DNA from: an uncultured delta proteobacterium
GTDB taxonomy: Bacteria > Myxococcota > Myxococcia > Myxococcales > Myxococcaceae
DNA length: 64,000 nucleotides
Assembly (NCBI GenBank): GCA_963796055.1
Contig: CAWCKH010000004.1
Location: 3,136,001-3,200,000, forward strand
Direction: 5' to 3'
Positions 30,788 to 39,161 of this stretch are shown one piece after another; the first letter of the stretch is position 1, and each line of letters starts with the position of its first letter. A program made the position numbers and the translations under genes. The notes beneath the pieces are model-generated. The model saw only the letters and a list, made by a program, of their open reading frames with translations. It ran no database searches and had not been told where the DNA came from.

Positions 30788-30826
30788 TGCGTATAGATAT
30801 GCAGGCTCAATGCATAAGTATGCCAT
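30788..30826. promoter_or_regulatory. Tandem ARG boxes (ArgR operator)
   Basis: 18-mers TGCGTATAGATATGCAGG (30788-30805) and AATGCATAAGTATGCCAT (30809-30826) fit nnTGnATwwwwATnCAnn with a few mismatches, with the canonical 3-bp spacing; argR is in the operon. Confidence 0.8.
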
Positions 30827-31874
30827 CGGGGTGGTCGGGGCCTCCGGCTACTCCGGCATCGAGCTCTGCCGCGTCCTCGCCGCCCACCCGGGGGTGGAGG
30901 TCCGCTTCGTCGCCAGCGACCGGTGGGAGGGCGCCACCGTCCGGGCGAAGACCGGCCTCGGCGGGCCCGTCGGCGCCCTGGCCTACGTTCCGAACGTCCA
31001 GGCGTTGAAGGCCTCGGAGGGCTGCGCGGCGGTGCTGCTGGCCACCCCGGCCGAGGCGTCGCTGGAGCTGGCGCCGGCCCTGCTCGAGCGCGGGGTGAAG
31101 GTCATCGACCTCTCGGGCGCCTTCCGGCTCGCCGACGCCGCTGCCTACCCGCGGCACTACGGCTTCGAGCACCGGCTTCCGGCGCTGCTGGAGTCGGCGG
31201 TGTACGGGCTGCCGGAGCTCGTGGACCGCAAGGCCATCGCCTCGGCGCGGCTGGTGGCCAACCCCGGCTGTTACCCCACCGCCGCGGCCCTGGCCCTCGT
31301 GCCGCTGCTCCGGGCGGGGCTCCTCGCCGACGAGTCCATCGTCATCGACGCCGCGTCGGGCGTCTCCGGAGCCGGGCGGCAGGCCTCCGAGGCTTACAGC
31401 TTCTGCGAGGTCGCCGACGACGTCCGGCCGTACAAGGTCCTCCGGCACCAGCACACCCCCGAGATCGCCCAGTCGCTCGCCCGCGGGGCGGGCAGGGCCG
31501 TGCGCCTCACGTTCACCCCGCACCTGCTTCCCATCAGGCGAGGCATCCTCTCCACCGCCTCGGCGCGGCTCGCCCCGGGCGCGGCCCCTGGCGCGCTGGC
31601 CGAGGTGCTCCGCGCCGCCTACCGGGACGAGCCCCTGGTGGAGATGCTCGAGACGCCGGAGCAGGTGTCCATCGCCAGGGTCGTCGGCACGCCGCGCGCC
31701 GCGGTGGCCGTCTCCGCCGCCGAGTCGGGCTTCGACCCGGGCCGGGTGGTGGTCGTCTCCTCCATCGACAACCTCCTCAAGGGTGCCGCGAGCCAGGCGG
31801 TGCAGAACCTCAACCTCGTGCTCGGGCTCCCCGAGCGCACCGCGCTCGAGCCGAGCCCCGGAGTCCGCTCATGA
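30810..31874 (+). CDS. argC: N-acetyl-gamma-glutamyl-phosphate reductase
   Basis: GASGYSG, DLSGAFRL, ANPGCYPTA, SGVSGAG, HQHTPEI, DNLLKGAASQAVQN. Confidence 0.96.
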   Translation: MHKYAIGVVGASGYSGIELCRVLAAHPGVEVRFVASDRWEGATVRAKTGLGGPVGALAYVPNVQALKASEGCAAVLLATPAEASLELAPALLERGVKVIDLSGAFRLADAAAYPRHYGFEHRLPALLESAVYGLPELVDRKAIASARLVANPGCYPTAAALALVPLLRAGLLADESIVIDAASGVSGAGRQASEAYSFCEVADDVRPYKVLRHQHTPEIAQSLARGAGRAVRLTFTPHLLPIRRGILSTASARLAPGAAPGALAEVLRAAYRDEPLVEMLETPEQVSIARVVGTPRAAVAVSAAESGFDPGRVVVVSSIDNLLKGAASQAVQNLNLVLGLPERTALEPSPGVRS

Positions 31875-33907
31875 TGGTGCAGGGCTTCCGGTTCGCCGGG
31901 CTCCATGCAGGCATCAAGCCGGCGAAGAAGGACCTGGCGCTGGTGGTGAGCGACGTGCCCGCCTCGGGCGCCGGCTGCTTCACCATCAACCGCGCTCAGG
32001 CCGCCCCGGTGCAGGACGCCCAACCCCGGCTCCCCGCGACCGGGGTCCGTGCCATCCTGGTCAACAGCGGCAACGCCAACGCCCTCACCGGCGAGGAAGG
32101 CCGCAAGGACGTGGCCCAGGTCCGGCGGGCGCTCGGCGCGGTCCTTCGCGTGCCGCCCGAGTCGACGTTCACCGCCAGCACCGGCGTCATCGGCGTCCGG
32201 CTCCCGGTGGAGAAGATCACCCACGGGCTCGGCCGCCTCGTCGAGTCCCTGGGCCCGAGCTGCGAGCCCGCCGCCGAGGCGATCCTGACCACCGACACTC
32301 ACCCCAAGGTGGCGCGCCGGTCGCTCCACCTCGGTGGGCGGGAGGTGAGCATCCTCGGGTTCGCCAAGGGCTCGGGGATGATCGCCCCCCAGATGGCGAC
32401 GATGATCGCCGTCGTGTGCACCGATGCGGCGATTCCTCCTCCGGTCCTCGCCCGGGCGCTCCGGAGCGCGGTCGACGCGAGCTTCCACGCCGTGGTCGTC
32501 GACGGCGACATGAGCACCAACGACTGCGTGTTCGCCCTGGCCAACGGGATGGCGGCGAACGCCCCGGTCGGCGAGGCAGGCCCGGACTACGAGAGCTTCT
32601 GCGCCGCGCTGACCGACGTCTGCGCCGAGCTCGCCCGCGACATCGCCGCCGACGGTGAGGGCGCCACCAAGCTGCTCACGGTGGAGATCACCCAGGCGCC
32701 GAGCGCGGCGATCGCCCGGGACATCAGCAAGGCCATCGCCGTCTCGCCCCTGGTGAAGACCGCGCTCTTCGGCGCCGATCCCAACTGGGGCCGGGTGCTG
32801 GCCACCGTCGGCGCGCGCGCCGGGAGCCAGGACTACCCCATCGACCCCGAGCAGGCCGAGGTCCGGATCCAGGGTGTACGGGTGTTCGGCGACGGCGCGC
32901 CGCAGCCGCACGACCCGGAGACGCTCCGGGCGCGCATGCGCGAGCCGGAGGTGGTGGTGGAGGTGGCGCTGGCCGCCGGCAAGGATTCGGCGACCGCCTG
33001 GGGCTGCGACTTCAGCTACGACTACGTGAAGATCAACGCCGACTACACCTCGCTCATCGTCCCCCAGGCGGACGGCTCGGTGCGGCGCGAGGACCGGCTC
33101 ACCCGGTACAGCCCGGGCTTCAAGCAGACGCTGCTGGTCGAGGCGCTCAAGTACATCTCCCGCTTCTCCGGGACCACCTGCGTGCTGGGCTACGGCGGGG
33201 AGGGGCTCCGCAAGAGCTCGAACCGGGCGAGCTTCTGCGAGGACGTGGTGCTCCTCCGCTCGGTGGGGCTCCGGCCGGTGGTTGTGCACGGTGCCGTCCC
33301 GCCGGAGGAGGGGATGCCCCCGGTGGATCCCGACGTGCTGGAGATGGTCCTCACCGGACGAATCACCGGGGACCTGGTGGCGCTGCTCAACGCCGGGGGT
33401 GGCCGCGCAGTGGGCGTCTCGGGCAAGGACGGGCCGCTGCTCCGCGCCGTTCCTTCGGCGTCCGACGCCGCCGCCCTGGGCGAGCGCAGGGGCGAGGTCC
33501 GCGAGGTGAACCGCGGGTTCCTCGAGATGTTGATGGAGAAGGACTACCTCCCGGTCATCGCCCCGGTGGGGATCGGGCCGGGGGGCGAGACGCTGCACCT
33601 GTCCCCGGAGGGTGCCGCCGCCGAGGTGGCCATCGCGCTCGGGGCGCCGAAGCTCATCCTCCTCCAGGACGCCAAGGGCCTGGTCGCGGGCGGCGAGGTC
33701 CGCAACCAGCTGACGGTCACCGACCTCGAGCGCCAGCTCGCCGACGGCGCCGTGCCTGCGCAGAGCAAGCCGCTGGTGCACGCCATCCTCCGCGCGCTCG
33801 CCGGTGGAGTGGAGCGGGTCCACGTGCTCGACGGCCGGCTGGCCCACGCCACCATCGCCGAGCTCTTCACCGACCACGGCGTCGGCACGCTGGTGACCGC
33901 CGGATGA
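31871..33907 (+). CDS. argJ: Ornithine acetyltransferase ArgJ fused to a degenerate acetylglutamate-kinase-like (AAK) domain
   Basis: NSGNANA, STGVIG, TTDT, KGSGMIAPQMATM, DGEGATK, DPNWGR, YVKINADY, then about 280 aa of ArgB-like sequence ending ELFTDHGVGT. Confidence 0.9.
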   Translation: MMVQGFRFAGLHAGIKPAKKDLALVVSDVPASGAGCFTINRAQAAPVQDAQPRLPATGVRAILVNSGNANALTGEEGRKDVAQVRRALGAVLRVPPESTFTASTGVIGVRLPVEKITHGLGRLVESLGPSCEPAAEAILTTDTHPKVARRSLHLGGREVSILGFAKGSGMIAPQMATMIAVVCTDAAIPPPVLARALRSAVDASFHAVVVDGDMSTNDCVFALANGMAANAPVGEAGPDYESFCAALTDVCAELARDIAADGEGATKLLTVEITQAPSAAIARDISKAIAVSPLVKTALFGADPNWGRVLATVGARAGSQDYPIDPEQAEVRIQGVRVFGDGAPQPHDPETLRARMREPEVVVEVALAAGKDSATAWGCDFSYDYVKINADYTSLIVPQADGSVRREDRLTRYSPGFKQTLLVEALKYISRFSGTTCVLGYGGEGLRKSSNRASFCEDVVLLRSVGLRPVVVHGAVPPEEGMPPVDPDVLEMVLTGRITGDLVALLNAGGGRAVGVSGKDGPLLRAVPSASDAAALGERRGEVREVNRGFLEMLMEKDYLPVIAPVGIGPGGETLHLSPEGAAAEVAIALGAPKLILLQDAKGLVAGGEVRNQLTVTDLERQLADGAVPAQSKPLVHAILRALAGGVERVHVLDGRLAHATIAELFTDHGVGTLVTAG

Positions 33908-34389
33908 GGCCCCGCGAGGAGCAGACCACCGAGGCCCGCCGCGAGGCGATCCGTCGCCTCATCCGTGGCCGGAAGGTCGCGACCCAGGAGGATCTCCGCT
34001 CGCTCCTGGCCGACCAGGGCTTCGAGGTGACCCAGGGCACGCTCTCTCGCGACCTGGCCCGGCTGGGCGCCCGGCGGGCTGCCGGATTAGAGGGGGGCAC
34101 GGTCTACGAGCTTCCCCCCGAGGGGTCCTCGGTTCCCGCCCCCGGGCTCCTCGAGGCGCTCGACCCCCTCGTCCGCGGAGTGCGAGACAACGGTGCGCTG
34201 GTGGTGGTGCACACCACTCCCGGCGCGGCCCCGGCGGTCGCCCTGGCGCTGGACCAGGCGCGCTTGCCGGAGGTGCTGGGAACGATTGCCGGCGACGACA
34301 CGGTGTTCGTCGCCCCGGCGCAGGCTGCCTCGGCGTCGAGGCTCACCAGGGTCCTCCAGGGACTCCTACAGAAGGGAAGAAGGTCATGA
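33904..34389 (+). CDS. argR: Arginine repressor
   Basis: TQEDL, VTQGTLSRDL, GTIAGDDT. Confidence 0.95.
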   Translation: MRPREEQTTEARREAIRRLIRGRKVATQEDLRSLLADQGFEVTQGTLSRDLARLGARRAAGLEGGTVYELPPEGSSVPAPGLLEALDPLVRGVRDNGALVVVHTTPGAAPAVALALDQARLPEVLGTIAGDDTVFVAPAQAASASRLTRVLQGLLQKGRRS

Positions 34390-35588
34390 AGAGAGAGAAG
34401 ATCGTCCTCGCGTACTCCGGAGGCCTGGACACGTCGGTCCTGGTCCGCATCCTCACCGAGGATTATGGCTACGACGTGGTGTGCTGCCACGCCGACGTGG
34501 GCGAGGCGCGCGACGCCAAGGCGCTCACCGAGCGGGCCAAGGCCGCCGGGGCGATCGCCATGGAGATGGTGGACGCCAAGGAGGAGTTCGCCAAGGACTT
34601 CTGCTTCCCGGCGCTGCAGGCCAACGCGCTCTACGAGGGCGTGTATCCGCTCTCGGCCGCGCTCAGCCGCCCGCTGATCGCCAAGCACCTGGTGGACATC
34701 GCCCACAATTACGGAGCCACCGCGGTGGCCCACGGCGCGACCGGCAAGGGCAACGACCAGGTACGGTTCGACCTGGCGGTGAAGGGTCTCGACCCGGCGC
34801 TGAAGATCATCGCCCCCCAGCGCGAGCGGAACATCAGCCGCGACGAGGCGATGGACTACGCCGCCAAGCACGGCATCGCGGTGCCCACCACCCGGAAGAG
34901 CCCGTTCAGCATCGACGAGAACCTCTGGGGGCGCAGCATCGAGGGCGGGGTACTGGAGGATCCGGCCACCGAGCCCCCCGAGGAGGCCTTCGCCTGGACG
35001 AGGTCGTGGAAGGACGCGCCGGCCGAGCCGGGGCTCATCCGCATCGGCTTCGAGGCTGGATATCCAGTGTCGGTCAACAGCGAGCGGCTGTCCCCCGCCA
35101 GGCTCATCACCAAGGTGGGCGAGTTCGCCGGTCTGCACGGCGTGGGCCGCATCGACCTCATGGAGAACCGGGTGGTGGGCATCAAGAGCCGGGAGACCTA
35201 CGAGTGTCCGGCCGCGGTGGCGCTCATCGCCGCCCACCAGGACCTCGAGCGGTTCACCACCCTGGGCCTGTCGGCGAGGACCAAGGCGCAGCTCGACACC
35301 ACCTTCGCCCAGCTCACCTATGACGGCTTCTGGTTCTCGCCGCTCCGGCGGGCGATCCAGGCCTTCAACGACGAGAACGACAAGTACGTCACCGGCGAGG
35401 TGACCTTGAAGCTGCACAAGGCCTCGCTCCGCGTCGTCGGCCGCAAGTCCGAGTTCGGCGTGTACAACAAGCTGCTCTCCACCTACGGCCGCGAGGACAA
35501 GTTCGACCACCGGGCCGCCGAGGGCTTCATCAACTTGCTCGGGCTCCAGCTCCAGGAGTACAGCCGTCTGCACGGGGGAGGGGCTTGA
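34386..35588 (+). CDS. argG: Argininosuccinate synthase
   Basis: LAYSGGLDTS, HGATGKGNDQVRF, SIDENLWG, ENRVVGIKSRE. Confidence 0.97.
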   Translation: MKREKIVLAYSGGLDTSVLVRILTEDYGYDVVCCHADVGEARDAKALTERAKAAGAIAMEMVDAKEEFAKDFCFPALQANALYEGVYPLSAALSRPLIAKHLVDIAHNYGATAVAHGATGKGNDQVRFDLAVKGLDPALKIIAPQRERNISRDEAMDYAAKHGIAVPTTRKSPFSIDENLWGRSIEGGVLEDPATEPPEEAFAWTRSWKDAPAEPGLIRIGFEAGYPVSVNSERLSPARLITKVGEFAGLHGVGRIDLMENRVVGIKSRETYECPAAVALIAAHQDLERFTTLGLSARTKAQLDTTFAQLTYDGFWFSPLRRAIQAFNDENDKYVTGEVTLKLHKASLRVVGRKSEFGVYNKLLSTYGREDKFDHRAAEGFINLLGLQLQEYSRLHGGGA

Positions 35589-37024
35589 TCGCCAAGACCG
35601 ACGCTGCCGGCGGACCGGGGCTTCTTCCGGAGGTGCTCGCCTTCTCCAGCTCGCTGGAGCAGGACCGGGCGCTGCTGCGCGAGGACCTGGTGGGCTCGAT
35701 GGCCCATCTGGCGATGCTCAGTCGCCAGGGCATCGTGCCCGCCGAGGCGGCGCGCACCATCCACGACGGCCTGGTGGCGCTGTGGCGCGACGCCGAGTCG
35801 GGCGCCTTCGTGCCCGCGGGCGAGGAGGACGTGCACATGGCGGTGGAGGCCGAGCTGACGCGCCGTCTGGGCGACGTCGCCGGCTTCCTCCACACCGGCC
35901 GCTCGCGGAACGACCAGGTGGCGCTCGACCTGCGCCTCTTCGTCCGGGAGCGGTGCGCCGACGTGCTGACCGGCCTCTCCGAGCTGCTCGCTCTGCTGGC
36001 CGGCCGGGCCGAGTCGGACCGCGAGGTCCTCTTCCCCGCCTACACCCATCGCCAGCGAGCCCAGCCGGTGAGCGCCGGCTACTGGTGGGCCGCGTACGGA
36101 GCGATGTTTGCCCGGGACGTGGAGGCGATGCGCTTCGCCCTGGCCCAGGTGGACGCCTCGCCGCTGGGGGTGGGTGCCATCGCCGGAACCTCGCTCCCCA
36201 CCGACCGGCGCATCCCCCAGGAGCTGCTCGACTTCTCCCGGCTCACCCTCAACGGTCTGGACACGGTGGGCGACCGGGACTTTGCGCTGGACTTCGTCTA
36301 CGCCGCCAGCCGGGTGCTGCTCCATGCCTCGCGGCTGGCCACCGACGTGGTGGACTTCGCCTCCAGCGAGTTCGGCTTCCTGGTGCTCGACGACGCCATC
36401 GCTTGCGGCTCGAGCCTCATGCCCCAGAAGAAGAACCCCGACGTCTTCGAGCTGGTGCGCGGCCGGAGTGGGCAGGGCATCGGCGCCCTGGTCCAGCTCT
36501 TCACCACCCTCAAGGGACTTCCCGGGGGCTACAACCGGGACCTCCAGGAGGACCGGGCCCCGCTGCTGGGAACCGCGTCGAACGTGCTGGCGGTGCTCGC
36601 CGCGCTCCGCGTGTCCATCCCCCGCATCCGCTTCGACGCCGACCGCTGCCGCGCAGCGCTGGAGCGCGACTACACCCAGGCGACGGACGTCGCCGAGGCG
36701 CTGGTCCGGGTGGGCGTCCCCTTCCGCTCGGCATACCGCCGCGTGGGCACGCTGGTCCGCAGGGCGCAAGCGGCCGGGCTGGGGCTTCTGCAGGCCCAGG
36801 ACCTCGCCCAGGCCCTCGACCCGGAGCTCGCCACCGCGCTGGCCTCGGTCGGTGACGTGCGGGCCTCCGTGGCCGGCAAGCGCAGCGCGGGCTCGACCGG
36901 GCCGGCCGAGGTGGAGCGGCAGATCGCCGTGCTCCGCCAGGCTGCCTCCGACGCCCGCGCCACCGCCTCGGCCGTTCCGCGCCTCGCTCAGCTCTTCACC
37001 ACGCTCGCCGGGGGCGGCCGGTGA
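35585..37024 (+). CDS. argH: Argininosuccinate lyase
   Basis: HTGRSRNDQV, YTHRQRAQP, GSSLMPQKKNPD, YNRDLQED. Confidence 0.96.
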   Translation: MIAKTDAAGGPGLLPEVLAFSSSLEQDRALLREDLVGSMAHLAMLSRQGIVPAEAARTIHDGLVALWRDAESGAFVPAGEEDVHMAVEAELTRRLGDVAGFLHTGRSRNDQVALDLRLFVRERCADVLTGLSELLALLAGRAESDREVLFPAYTHRQRAQPVSAGYWWAAYGAMFARDVEAMRFALAQVDASPLGVGAIAGTSLPTDRRIPQELLDFSRLTLNGLDTVGDRDFALDFVYAASRVLLHASRLATDVVDFASSEFGFLVLDDAIACGSSLMPQKKNPDVFELVRGRSGQGIGALVQLFTTLKGLPGGYNRDLQEDRAPLLGTASNVLAVLAALRVSIPRIRFDADRCRAALERDYTQATDVAEALVRVGVPFRSAYRRVGTLVRRAQAAGLGLLQAQDLAQALDPELATALASVGDVRASVAGKRSAGSTGPAEVERQIAVLRQAASDARATASAVPRLAQLFTTLAGGGR

Positions 37025-37947
37025 GACACTTCCTGCGGATGGCCGACCTCGGACGCGGGGAGATCCGCCGCCTCTTCGCCCGTGCCGCCCAGTTGAAGCG
37101 GCGCCGGCGAGAGGGGCACCTTGACGACTCGCTGGCCGGCAGGACGGTGGTGCTCCTGATGGAGAAGGCCAGCACCCGGACCCGGCTCTCGTTCGCCGCC
37201 GCCGCGTTCCAGCTCGGCGGCCACGCGATCGAGCTGACCGCCAGCACCAGCCAGCTCGCCCGCGGCGAGCCCCTGTCCGACACCGCTCGGGTCGTCTCGT
37301 CGTACGCCGACGCGGTGGTGATGCGCACCACCGCCGATGCGCGACTCGCCGAGTTCGTCCGCTGGAGCTCGGTGCCGGTCATCAACGGGCTCACCGACGG
37401 CGGACACCCGGTCCAGGTGCTGACCGACCTGTTCACCGTGGAGGAGTCGGTCGGTGCGCTGGCCGGCAAGCGGATCGCCTTCGTCGGCGACGGCTCGGGC
37501 AACATGGCCCGCTCCTTCCTGGAGGCGGCCCCGCTGCTGGACTTCACCCTGCAGCTCGGGTCTCCACCGGAGTTCCGCCCGCCCGCCGCGGAGGCCCAGC
37601 CCGCCGGGAGTCACCTCCTGATCTCCGGCGATCCGCGGGCGGCGGTGGCAGGTGCCGACGTGGTGGTGACCGACGTGTGGACCAGCATGGGCCAGGAGGC
37701 GGAGGCCGCGGCGCGGCTGAAGGCCTTCCAGGGCTTCACGGTGGACGCGGCGCTGCTCGCCGCCGCACGTCCGGGTGCGATCGTCCTCCACTGTCTACCT
37801 GCTCACCGGGGCGAGGAGATCACCGACGAGGTGCTCGAGGGACCGCAGTCGCGGGTCTTCCAGGAGGCCGAGAACCGGATGCACGTGCAGAAGGCGCTGC
37901 TCGAGCACGTCATCCTCGGCGGCGTTGCCGAGACGTCAGAGGCCTGA
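37021..37947 (+). CDS. argF: Ornithine carbamoyltransferase
   Basis: STRTRLSF, HPVQ, TDVWTSMGQE, HCLPAHRGEE, AENR. Confidence 0.96.
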   Translation: MRHFLRMADLGRGEIRRLFARAAQLKRRRREGHLDDSLAGRTVVLLMEKASTRTRLSFAAAAFQLGGHAIELTASTSQLARGEPLSDTARVVSSYADAVVMRTTADARLAEFVRWSSVPVINGLTDGGHPVQVLTDLFTVEESVGALAGKRIAFVGDGSGNMARSFLEAAPLLDFTLQLGSPPEFRPPAAEAQPAGSHLLISGDPRAAVAGADVVVTDVWTSMGQEAEAAARLKAFQGFTVDAALLAAARPGAIVLHCLPAHRGEEITDEVLEGPQSRVFQEAENRMHVQKALLEHVILGGVAETSEA

Positions 37948-38074
37948 GGCCGGCCTGACACGGACGCTCCAGAGGAAACTTTGGACAACGTTCACTGATC
38001 GGCACTCCCTGGCCCCCGGGTAGAAGCGGCCTCAGGCTGCGGGGCAGAGTGTTCACCGTACGAAGGGGGGTGTC

Positions 38075-38850
38075 ATGGGGACCATCCTCGGTTCGTGGTT
38101 CGTGGAGGTCGTGGACCCGGATCCGATCGACCGGGCCCGTCTGGTGGAGGCGGTGACCGCACTGGGGGTGATGGTCCAGGGGCACGCTCGCCTGGAGGAT
38201 GGTTCGACTCTTCGCGGGAACCCGCAGCTTGGGTGTCTGCTCGTCTCCGCCGAGGACTGGACGACGACCTCCCGCGGTCTGGACGCGCTCCTCGCGGAGC
38301 TGGGGGCTGGCGTCCCGGCCGTGGCGATCGGGCGAGCGCTGTCGCTGCCGAGGGTGGTGCAGCTGCTCAAGGCAGGGGCGGTCGACGTGCTCCACAAGCC
38401 GGTCGAGCCGGCGCGCGTGCAGCGGGCGGTCCACGAGGCGCTGCTCCGGGCCACGGATGCGCGGGCGCGCGCCCGGCGGATCTCCGAGCTGCGGGCCAAG
38501 CTCGACCATCTCACCCCCAGGGAGCGGGAGGTCACCTCGCTTCTGGTGCGGGGGCTGCTGAACAAGCAGGTCGGGCGGAGCTCGGCATCGCCGAGCGGAC
38601 GGTGAAGGGCTACCGGGCGCAGATCCTCCGGAAGGTCCGTGTCTCCGGCGTGGCCGAGCTGGTGCGGATCGCCACCTTGCTCGAGCTCGAGCAGACCGCC
38701 GGCGGGTCTGTCCGCCTCGGTCTGTTCGGACCGGGCGAGCCAGGGACCGACAGGCGCCGGGCTTCCCGTGCCGCGGGCGAGATCCAGGTCGCCACTGGCC
38801 CGGTGAGGCTGGAGGCGAGAAGGGCCTGGGAGCCTGTCGGCCATCGCTGA
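38075..38850 (+). pseudogene. FixJ/LuxR-type response regulator with a degenerate receiver and a 1-nt deletion frameshift at ~38575
   Basis: GAVDVLHKP and LTPREREV...GLLNKQV, then AELGIAERTVK...KVRVSGVAELVR in the next frame. Could be a sequencing error. Confidence 0.75.
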
Positions 38851-38984
38851 CTGCGGCCGCCCTGACCTCGCCGCCTCGCCGGGCTTCCCGTGCCGCGGGC
38901 GAGATCCAGCTCGCCACTGGCCCGGTGAGGCTGGAGGCGAGAAGGGCCTGGGAGCCTGTCGGCCATCGCTGACTGCGGCCGCCC
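38755..38984 (+). repeat. 108-bp direct repeat (38755-38862, 38877-38984)
   Basis: The two copies differ at one position (CCAGGTCG vs CCAGCTCG). A 20-bp partial third copy is at 39033-39052. Confidence 0.92.
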
Positions 38985-39161
38985 GGACTGCGCCGACTGC
39001 AGCCCACCCGACGACACCCTGACCCGGACCTCGACTGCGGCCGCCCTGACCTAGCCCTCGCGAGGAGTTCCGGCCCCGGCCGGCAGCCTCGGGCGAACTG
39101 GCTCGAGGAGGCAGACTCTGTACCTGTCGTGGACCGCCCCCGGGCCTGTACCCTTCCGGGC

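Follow-up and report, generated by a model that had tools for sequence, protein, structure and literature searches.

In the classical ArgA type of acetylglutamate synthase (NAGS), represented by the enzymes of Neisseria gonorrhoeae (2R8V, 3D2P) and Pseudomonas aeruginosa, the arginine site of an amino-acid-kinase (AAK) domain regulates the fused acetylglutamate-making domain via a length-sensitive linker (PMC4490483; PMC13637947). Arginine is reported to move the N-helix, tighten the linker and disorder the glutamate site of ArgA, and a longer linker abolishes the inhibition (PMC4490483). The elements of an arginine site are a loop of the form E-(L/I)-(F/M)-(T/S)-x-x-G-x-G-T, a Lys of the central sheet and the N-helix (PMC4490483), which contributes aromatic residues (PMC2566978). 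The ornithine acetyltransferase ArgJ is described as controlled through inhibition by ornithine, not by a dedicated arginine domain (PMC3827942). Here, we describe an argJ-argB fusion gene in a 64,000-nucleotide stretch of myxobacterial DNA (the window, G000:C4:3136001-3200000), which belongs to a genome rated 98.5% complete whose close relatives are labelled Myxococcaceae. The AAK domain of its product is probably a catalytically dead acetylglutamate kinase (NAGK), kept as an ArgA-like arginine sensor that would control the fused ArgJ via a C-terminal tail in the ArgJ active site.

The fusion is a single open frame, in which Pfam recognises ArgJ at residues 8-394 (E 2.8e-140) and AA_kinase at residues 436-654 (E 1.8e-20). 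A first reading of this DNA, made by a model from the letters alone (the sequence-only reading), had described an intact ArgJ that runs in frame into an ArgB-like domain, and the 678-residue frame with its two Pfam domains bears this out. Its parts are as follows.

31871..33907, plus strand: argJ-argB fusion gene, 678 aa; its ATG overlaps the argC stop and its stop overlaps the argR start
31871..33052, plus strand: residues 1-394, the ornithine acetyltransferase (ArgJ) domain, whose S394 lines up with the final residue of solved ArgJ chains
32399..32401, plus strand: T177, expected to act as nucleophile and as the site of self-cleavage (A176-T177); residue 1 of the beta chains in 1VRA, 2VZK and 3IT4 falls at this position
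33053..33112, plus strand: linker, residues 395-414; the spacing from Y392 to Y428 measures 37 residues in all but one of the 200 copies
33113..33169, plus strand: N-helix of the arginine-sensitive NAGK type (LVEALKYISRF), with Y428 and F432
33170..33904, plus strand: AAK domain, with a kinase site judged dead
33188..33190, plus strand: G440, where aligned NAGKs have their first catalytic Lys (K27 in Thermotoga, K8 in E. coli)
33287..33343, plus strand: residues 473-491, with HGAV and a shortened lid from which the Arg hairpin that binds acetylglutamate is missing
33596..33610, plus strand: HLSPE replacing NINAD; both Asn lost (H576, S578), catalytic Asp replaced by Glu (E580)
33650..33652, plus strand: K594, arginine-site Lys (Thermotoga K196 by alignment)
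33758..33775, plus strand: AQSKPL replacing GGMIPK; second catalytic Lys lost (L635), plus one Gly
33860..33889, plus strand: ELFTDHGVGT loop, an exact fit to the published arginine-site motif

The ArgJ part scores above the cut-offs of both NCBIfam models, with 459 bits for NF003802 (cut-off 351) and 403.6 bits for TIGR00120 (cut-off 298). Its catalytic Thr, which the sequence-only reading had picked out correctly, is T177, and T104, G105, T140, K166, T177 and E263 are invariant in a 71-sequence alignment. On this alignment, the ArgJ site of the fusion is intact: the nucleophile and conserved site residues are kept, as in described ArgJ enzymes (1VZ6, 1VRA, 3IT4; plant NAOGAT). Unlike the solved ArgJ chains, which stop at the equivalent of S394, the fusion continues where those chains end, and its frame runs 284 residues further.

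The nearest solved relatives of the AAK part are the arginine-inhibited NAGKs of Thermotoga (E 1e-51) and Pseudomonas (1e-49), with the Neisseria ArgA domain at 7e-18. Hexameric arginine-sensitive NAGKs (Thermotoga 2BTY, Pseudomonas 2BUF, Synechococcus 2JJ4) are its best matches in both sequence and fold and share its N-helix, Lys and loop; the fusion differs from them in being joined to ArgJ and in lacking the catalytic residues and the lid. The domain scores below the argB cut-off (TIGR00761, 111 bits versus 151.3) and below that of the LysZ models (71.5 bits versus 223), and a LysW match was not found in the 98.5% complete genome. Nor does the fusion classify as an ArgA (NAGS), Pfam reporting ArgJ and AA_kinase only and the ArgA models staying below cut-off.

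Alignment to the Thermotoga and Pseudomonas NAGKs revealed each of the eroded motifs that had been named before: VLGYGG at the first catalytic Lys position, HGAV where NAGK has HGGG, HLSPE, and LQD. The acetylglutamate-binding region is shortened as claimed, with 17 residues in the lid (H473-E491) versus 34-35 in intact copies, so that 17-18 lid residues are gone, and both lost Asn are acetylglutamate-site residues. The change of GGMxPK to AQSKPL, which removes the second catalytic Lys and one Gly, had been overlooked. The catalytic residues of E. coli NAGK are Lys8, Lys217 and Asp162 (PMC3329491). Out of 12 kinase-site positions scored, which include the first two Gly of HGGG (residues 474 and 475), only G443, G474 and D600 are retained in the fusion. 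With both catalytic Lys, the catalytic Asp and both Asn lost, and with the argB cut-off not reached, the earlier pseudo-kinase interpretation stands, and we judge the AAK domain to be inactive as a kinase.

A query spanning the junction had matches in 148 of the 301 genomes searched in the phylum, although two matched by the kinase end only. With a longer query, 120 of the 190 family genomes gave a match, six by the kinase part only. A set of 200 distinct full-length copies was assembled from 120 protein matches and fetched loci, from which proteins outside 660-720 residues, duplicates, partial or frameshifted loci and non-Myxococcota loci were dropped. The unpublished genome G208 is counted only in the family and phylum query tallies and in the search for a second argB from which the genus g3 count (below) derives. 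The kinase site is intact in 68 copies (11-12 of 12 residues), eroded in 120 (8 or fewer) and intermediate in 12. The ArgJ-ArgB fusion is old and common in Myxococcota. On a tree of 54 chosen ArgJ domains (27 from eroded and 27 from intact copies), the eroded state requires at least eight changes, six of them forced by well-supported branches, and a single eroded clade was rejected (p-AU 2.5e-8). Replacements differ by lineage, with Gly, Ser, Arg or Gln in place of Lys8 and separate lid deletions. Some of the eight changes could be regains; regain of a deleted lid would be unlikely. As read from the tree, kinase loss occurred several times, after the fusion.

Distant fusions were found among 50%-identity representatives, and 20 of them were aligned. 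A spacing of 37-38 residues is retained in 16, even where the linker sequence is unrecognisable, and in several of these 16 the N-lobe stretch is cut from 124 residues to 74, 61, 51 or 6, with the Tyr, the Phe, the Lys and the loop kept. The form with six N-lobe residues (577 aa) is represented by two different sequences, whose AAK part is invisible to Pfam, and one distant fusion is apparently frameshifted near the Lys. The remaining four (P0128, P0141, P0142 and P0148) have intact kinase motifs and different short junctions, and are probably separate fusions. In P0229, the order is reversed, with the AAK domain first, altered kinase motifs and a loop-like EIFTDDGCGT; together with the four just named, it suggests further independent fusions.

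Both arginine-site elements claimed by the sequence-only reading, the N-helix LVEALKYISRF and ELFTDHGVGT, are present in the NAGK alignment, and the N-helix carries two large aromatics, Y428 and F432. Y428, K594, E664, F666, T667, G670 and G672 occur in all 200 full-length fusions, the 120 eroded ones included, and F432 in 198. On the eroded branches of the ArgJ tree, the eight arginine-site positions changed 0.125 times on average versus 5.7 for 94 comparison positions, chosen as those outside the site that do not vary among intact copies (p 1.3e-4 in a rank test). Collection of the 200 copies by similarity to the fusion protein favours conservation overall, not of the pocket specifically. 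Standalone second ArgBs without the N-helix signature served as controls: a K stands at the position of the Lys in 5 of 10 sequences of one set and 0 of 9 of another, and the loop motif occurs in none of either. Selective retention of the arginine site across fusions is strongly supported by these comparisons. Simple pairwise dN/dS counts on the nucleotide sequences of 10 close relatives gave 0.115 for the AAK core, 0.100 for ArgJ, 0.084 for the linker, 0.027 for the N-helix and 0.099 for the N-lobe; the AAK core of the sister clade gave 0.110. The dead AAK domain is under purifying selection. Among the arginine enzymes found in the genome, the fusion alone bears the arginine-site signature. 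The earlier proposal of a parallel invention of feedback on ArgJ is thus supported as regards the retained site (200/200), but the fusion is not special to this genome, being shared across Myxococcota, where many relatives have a full kinase site. Arginine binding and control of ArgJ by the AAK domain, with its direction and target, are what we infer.

The expectation that argB and argD lie elsewhere in the genome proved right. A second argC-argB pair is found at G000:C4:1588407-1590317; its ArgB passes the argB cut-off (181.8 bits) and contains KVGG, HGGG, the lid Arg, NINAD and GGMIPK, with the N-helix signature and the loop motif absent. In 118 genomes with a scored fusion (two loci were dropped by the pattern), a second argB is present in 64 of 67 genomes with an eroded copy, 4 of 4 with an intermediate copy and 27 of 47 with an intact copy, and the 20 genomes that combine an intact fusion with no second argB all have 12 of 12 kinase-site residues. 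A similar loss of kinase residues once a separate NAGK exists is known from the NAGS-K of Azospirillum B510, which, by a sequence inference in PMC4490483, lost NAGK activity that another gene supplies. The protein there is an AAK-GNAT protein, in contrast to the ArgJ fusion described here.

ArgJ terminal residues have been reported to protrude into the active site, where truncation cuts activity 2.5-fold, and the terminal Ser of Mycobacterium ArgJ contacts ornithine (PMC13725253). Since S394 aligns with the solved chain end, and since that end reaches the active site in described ArgJs, the fusion would link an arginine-responsive N-helix to an active-site element via some 20 residues, and by analogy the coupling may be ArgA-like. 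We propose that an active, arginine-sensitive NAGK joined ArgJ early in Myxococcota and that the arrival of a second argB was followed by repeated loss of the kinase site, with the sensor kept. Cleavage of ArgJ at T177 would leave the AAK domain on the beta chain. Arginine would bind between the N-helix, K594 and the E664 loop and shift the N-helix as in NAGK and ArgA; the shift would travel via the short fixed linker to the ArgJ tail N389-S394, which is predicted to line the active site, and would lower acetylglutamate formation. Inhibition of ArgJ by arginine is more likely than activation, because the other entry points of the pathway are without an arginine site. A full-length structure model from the 71-sequence alignment has both domains folded (mean pLDDT 84.5, pTM 0.59) and finds fold matches in ArgJ, in arginine-sensitive NAGKs and also in 2R8V and 3D2P; it places a helix at 415-430, at low confidence. 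A single-sequence fold of the AAK domain (pLDDT 38) was discarded.

Several observations weigh against the proposed sensor. Residues 386-398 and 402-426 of the model fall below pLDDT 50, and no contact between the ArgJ and AAK domains is displayed. Among the background positions, 17 of 94 likewise show no change on the eroded branches, and some of the retention is therefore structural. In addition, 8 of 10 second ArgBs without the arginine signature have an E at the position of the Glu. The distant copy P0131 has His in place of Y428, and in family f14, four intact copies differ in linker length (30, 34, 36 and 38). The 20 genomes with an intact fusion only derive from four lineages, which makes their association a pattern and not a test. 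In 27 genomes, an intact fused kinase is kept beside a second argB, which therefore does not force kinase loss. No second argB was found in three eroded-copy genomes, G139 (98% complete, 7% contamination), G194 (92%) and G198 (87%, protein query only); each has only one argC, which is compatible with an unassembled locus but does not prove it.

Other explanations of the retained domain were also considered. It may bind arginine but act elsewhere than on its own ArgJ site, by building or releasing a complex with the second ArgB, ArgC or PII, or on the oligomer state of an arginine-pathway metabolon. We regard this as unlikely, although the second ArgB is without an arginine signature and could gain control from a partner, a metabolon of NAGK and NAGS exists in yeast (PMC3329491), the genome carries a PII gene and the N-lobe is as conserved in this clade as its dN/dS above indicates. 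In distant copies, little of the N-lobe is left and the usual dimer surface is gone, yet their pocket and ArgJ spacing stay. The second ArgB also occurs in genera without the fusion: in genus g3, 11 of 11 genomes have it and 0 of 9 match the junction. A slightly less likely alternative is a structural appendage, in which the fusion or its oligomer depends for its cohesion on the N-helix and the last strand, the pocket residues being interface residues and arginine not being sensed at all. That many non-pocket positions are fixed too is consistent with such a role, and standalone ArgJ ends exactly at the junction, so that the fused part may have become required for folding. However, a stop after S394 would give an ordinary ArgJ, yet a domain of 180-280 residues persists over deep branches, and K594 and the loop motif are dispensable for the fold, both being lost in standalone second ArgBs. 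It is improbable that kinase function survives in the domain, be it as residual NAGK activity or towards a new substrate: G443, G474 and D600 are retained and two well-assembled eroded-copy genomes show no other argB, but both catalytic Lys, the catalytic Asp, both Asn and the lid are altered or deleted, and the different replacements in different lineages fit loss, not a new shared site. A decaying relic, made redundant by the second argB, is the least probable explanation and is largely refuted by the dN/dS of the AAK core here and in the sister clade, by the invariant pocket residues and by a frame that is open in close relatives save one locus frameshifted throughout the operon, even though erosion tracks second-argB presence and AAK change relative to ArgJ is greater on eroded branches (0.96 versus 0.59).

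Some further variants were seen among the fusions and their relatives. Ser replaces Thr at the ArgJ nucleophile position in 21 of 200 fusions (L185-L198, L200, L201, L203, L204, L211, L051 and L179; A-S-T-I/L-A in most), nearly all from one lid-deleted clade; cleavage in these may be slower, or displaced by one residue. One genome has a second, more eroded fusion copy (L210, G169:C11:326200-328380), with the ArgJ tail changed and the arginine loop kept. Nearly all genomes of family f7 have a standalone second ArgJ beside the fusion (e.g., G020:C1:1438807-1439985). Genera g9 and g5 (L237, L238) gave no ArgJ matches and have a standalone ArgB with the N-helix and an arginine loop, EVFTNEGSGT, which would put arginine control on the kinase where the fusion is absent.

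In the remainder of the pathway, argD (G000:C4:3259247-3260417) has a one-base frameshift near 3259729 in this assembly. The argD cut-off is passed in 11 of 12 congeners, the twelfth argD being cut by a contig end, and since the gene is intact in congeners, the frameshift is probably an assembly error. The gene directly before argD encodes what we take, from its sequence, to be a ClpY/HslU-like ATPase. No ArgA over cut-off was found in this genome, and one of 121 genomes of the order has one; no short NAGS over cut-off was found in the genome either, the best GNAT scoring far below and lying beside arsenic-resistance-like genes. A gene of the ArgE family follows what is probably a histidine-utilisation gene. 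Two aspartate kinases and one glutamate 5-kinase are among the remaining AAK matches of the genome, and neither of two further, unnamed minus-strand matches, which were scanned in the wrong orientation, is over the argB cut-off. Assignment of the second argC-argB pair to a LysW pathway was rejected: the ArgB and ArgC models pass, LysZ fails, LysW was not found and LysX is below cut-off. An arginine N-succinyltransferase-like gene (below cut-offs; L013:3706-4740, G000:C4 about 1583700-1584740) lies ~4 kb from the pair, and a similar gene is nearby in 6 of 22 second argC-argB loci. The pair could also serve a succinylated route.

The fusion gene lies in an operon of the order argC-argJ/B-argR-argG-argH-argF, from which a separate argB or argD is absent. 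Its neighbours are:

30810..31874, plus strand: argC
33904..37947, plus strand: argR, argG, argH and argF, with overlapping starts and stops

A sigma-70 scan found no plus-strand promoter, and an Rfam scan of the window gave no match. Two ARG-box-like palindromes lie at window positions 30790-30824, one over a TATAGAT element and the other covering the argC start codon at 30810. In some relatives, the former has the perfect form TGCAT-N4-ATGCA. The ARG-box pattern has 69 matches across the genome and is too loose to define a regulon. With TTG and TATAGAT elements so near the ATG, the argC transcript may have almost no leader. After argF, at window positions 38053-39017, a response-regulator-like frame is broken near 38600 and a repeated stretch is read twice in the translations of open reading frames, possibly through a local duplication or an assembly fault.

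No description of an ArgJ-pseudokinase fusion was found in a literature search made mostly outside subscription journals, so that an earlier mention there is possible; passages of PMC1382215 mention only ArgE in Myxococcus xanthus. The two-domain architecture is already in databases, under ArgJ or acetylglutamate kinase names. The fusion resembles ArgA in having an AAK domain with an arginine site beside an acetylglutamate-making domain, as well as in its fold matches. Unlike in ArgA, the catalytic partner is ArgJ, a self-cleaving protein of the Ntn-hydrolase fold and not a GNAT, and the AAK domain is C-terminal and attached through its own N-helix. Because it is nearer to true NAGKs than to the ArgA domain by the E values given above, its recruitment is, on sequence grounds, independent of ArgA. 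We tentatively suggest, with slightly less than even confidence, a second kind of ArgA made from unrelated parts, in which the active-site tail of a self-cleaving ArgJ is tethered to an arginine-binding module. Reduction of a working kinase to this module would have taken place independently in several lineages, at the extreme (577 aa) leaving the N-helix, three N-terminal elements and the C-lobe.

The analysis corrects annotation, in that many fusions are labelled acetylglutamate kinase though 120 of the 200 examined are without a kinase site. Arginine feedback as described so far acts on ArgA or ArgB; sensing by a domain of ArgJ, if true, would be a third route, convergent with ArgA. The end product would then control an ornithine acetyltransferase allosterically, through a sensor domain of the enzyme itself, and extant intermediates would lead from an active bifunctional enzyme to a minimal sensor. 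The natural series of intact, point-eroded, lid-deleted and N-lobe-deleted kinases, present in cultured genera such as Archangium, would make the birth of a pseudo-enzyme regulator directly testable.

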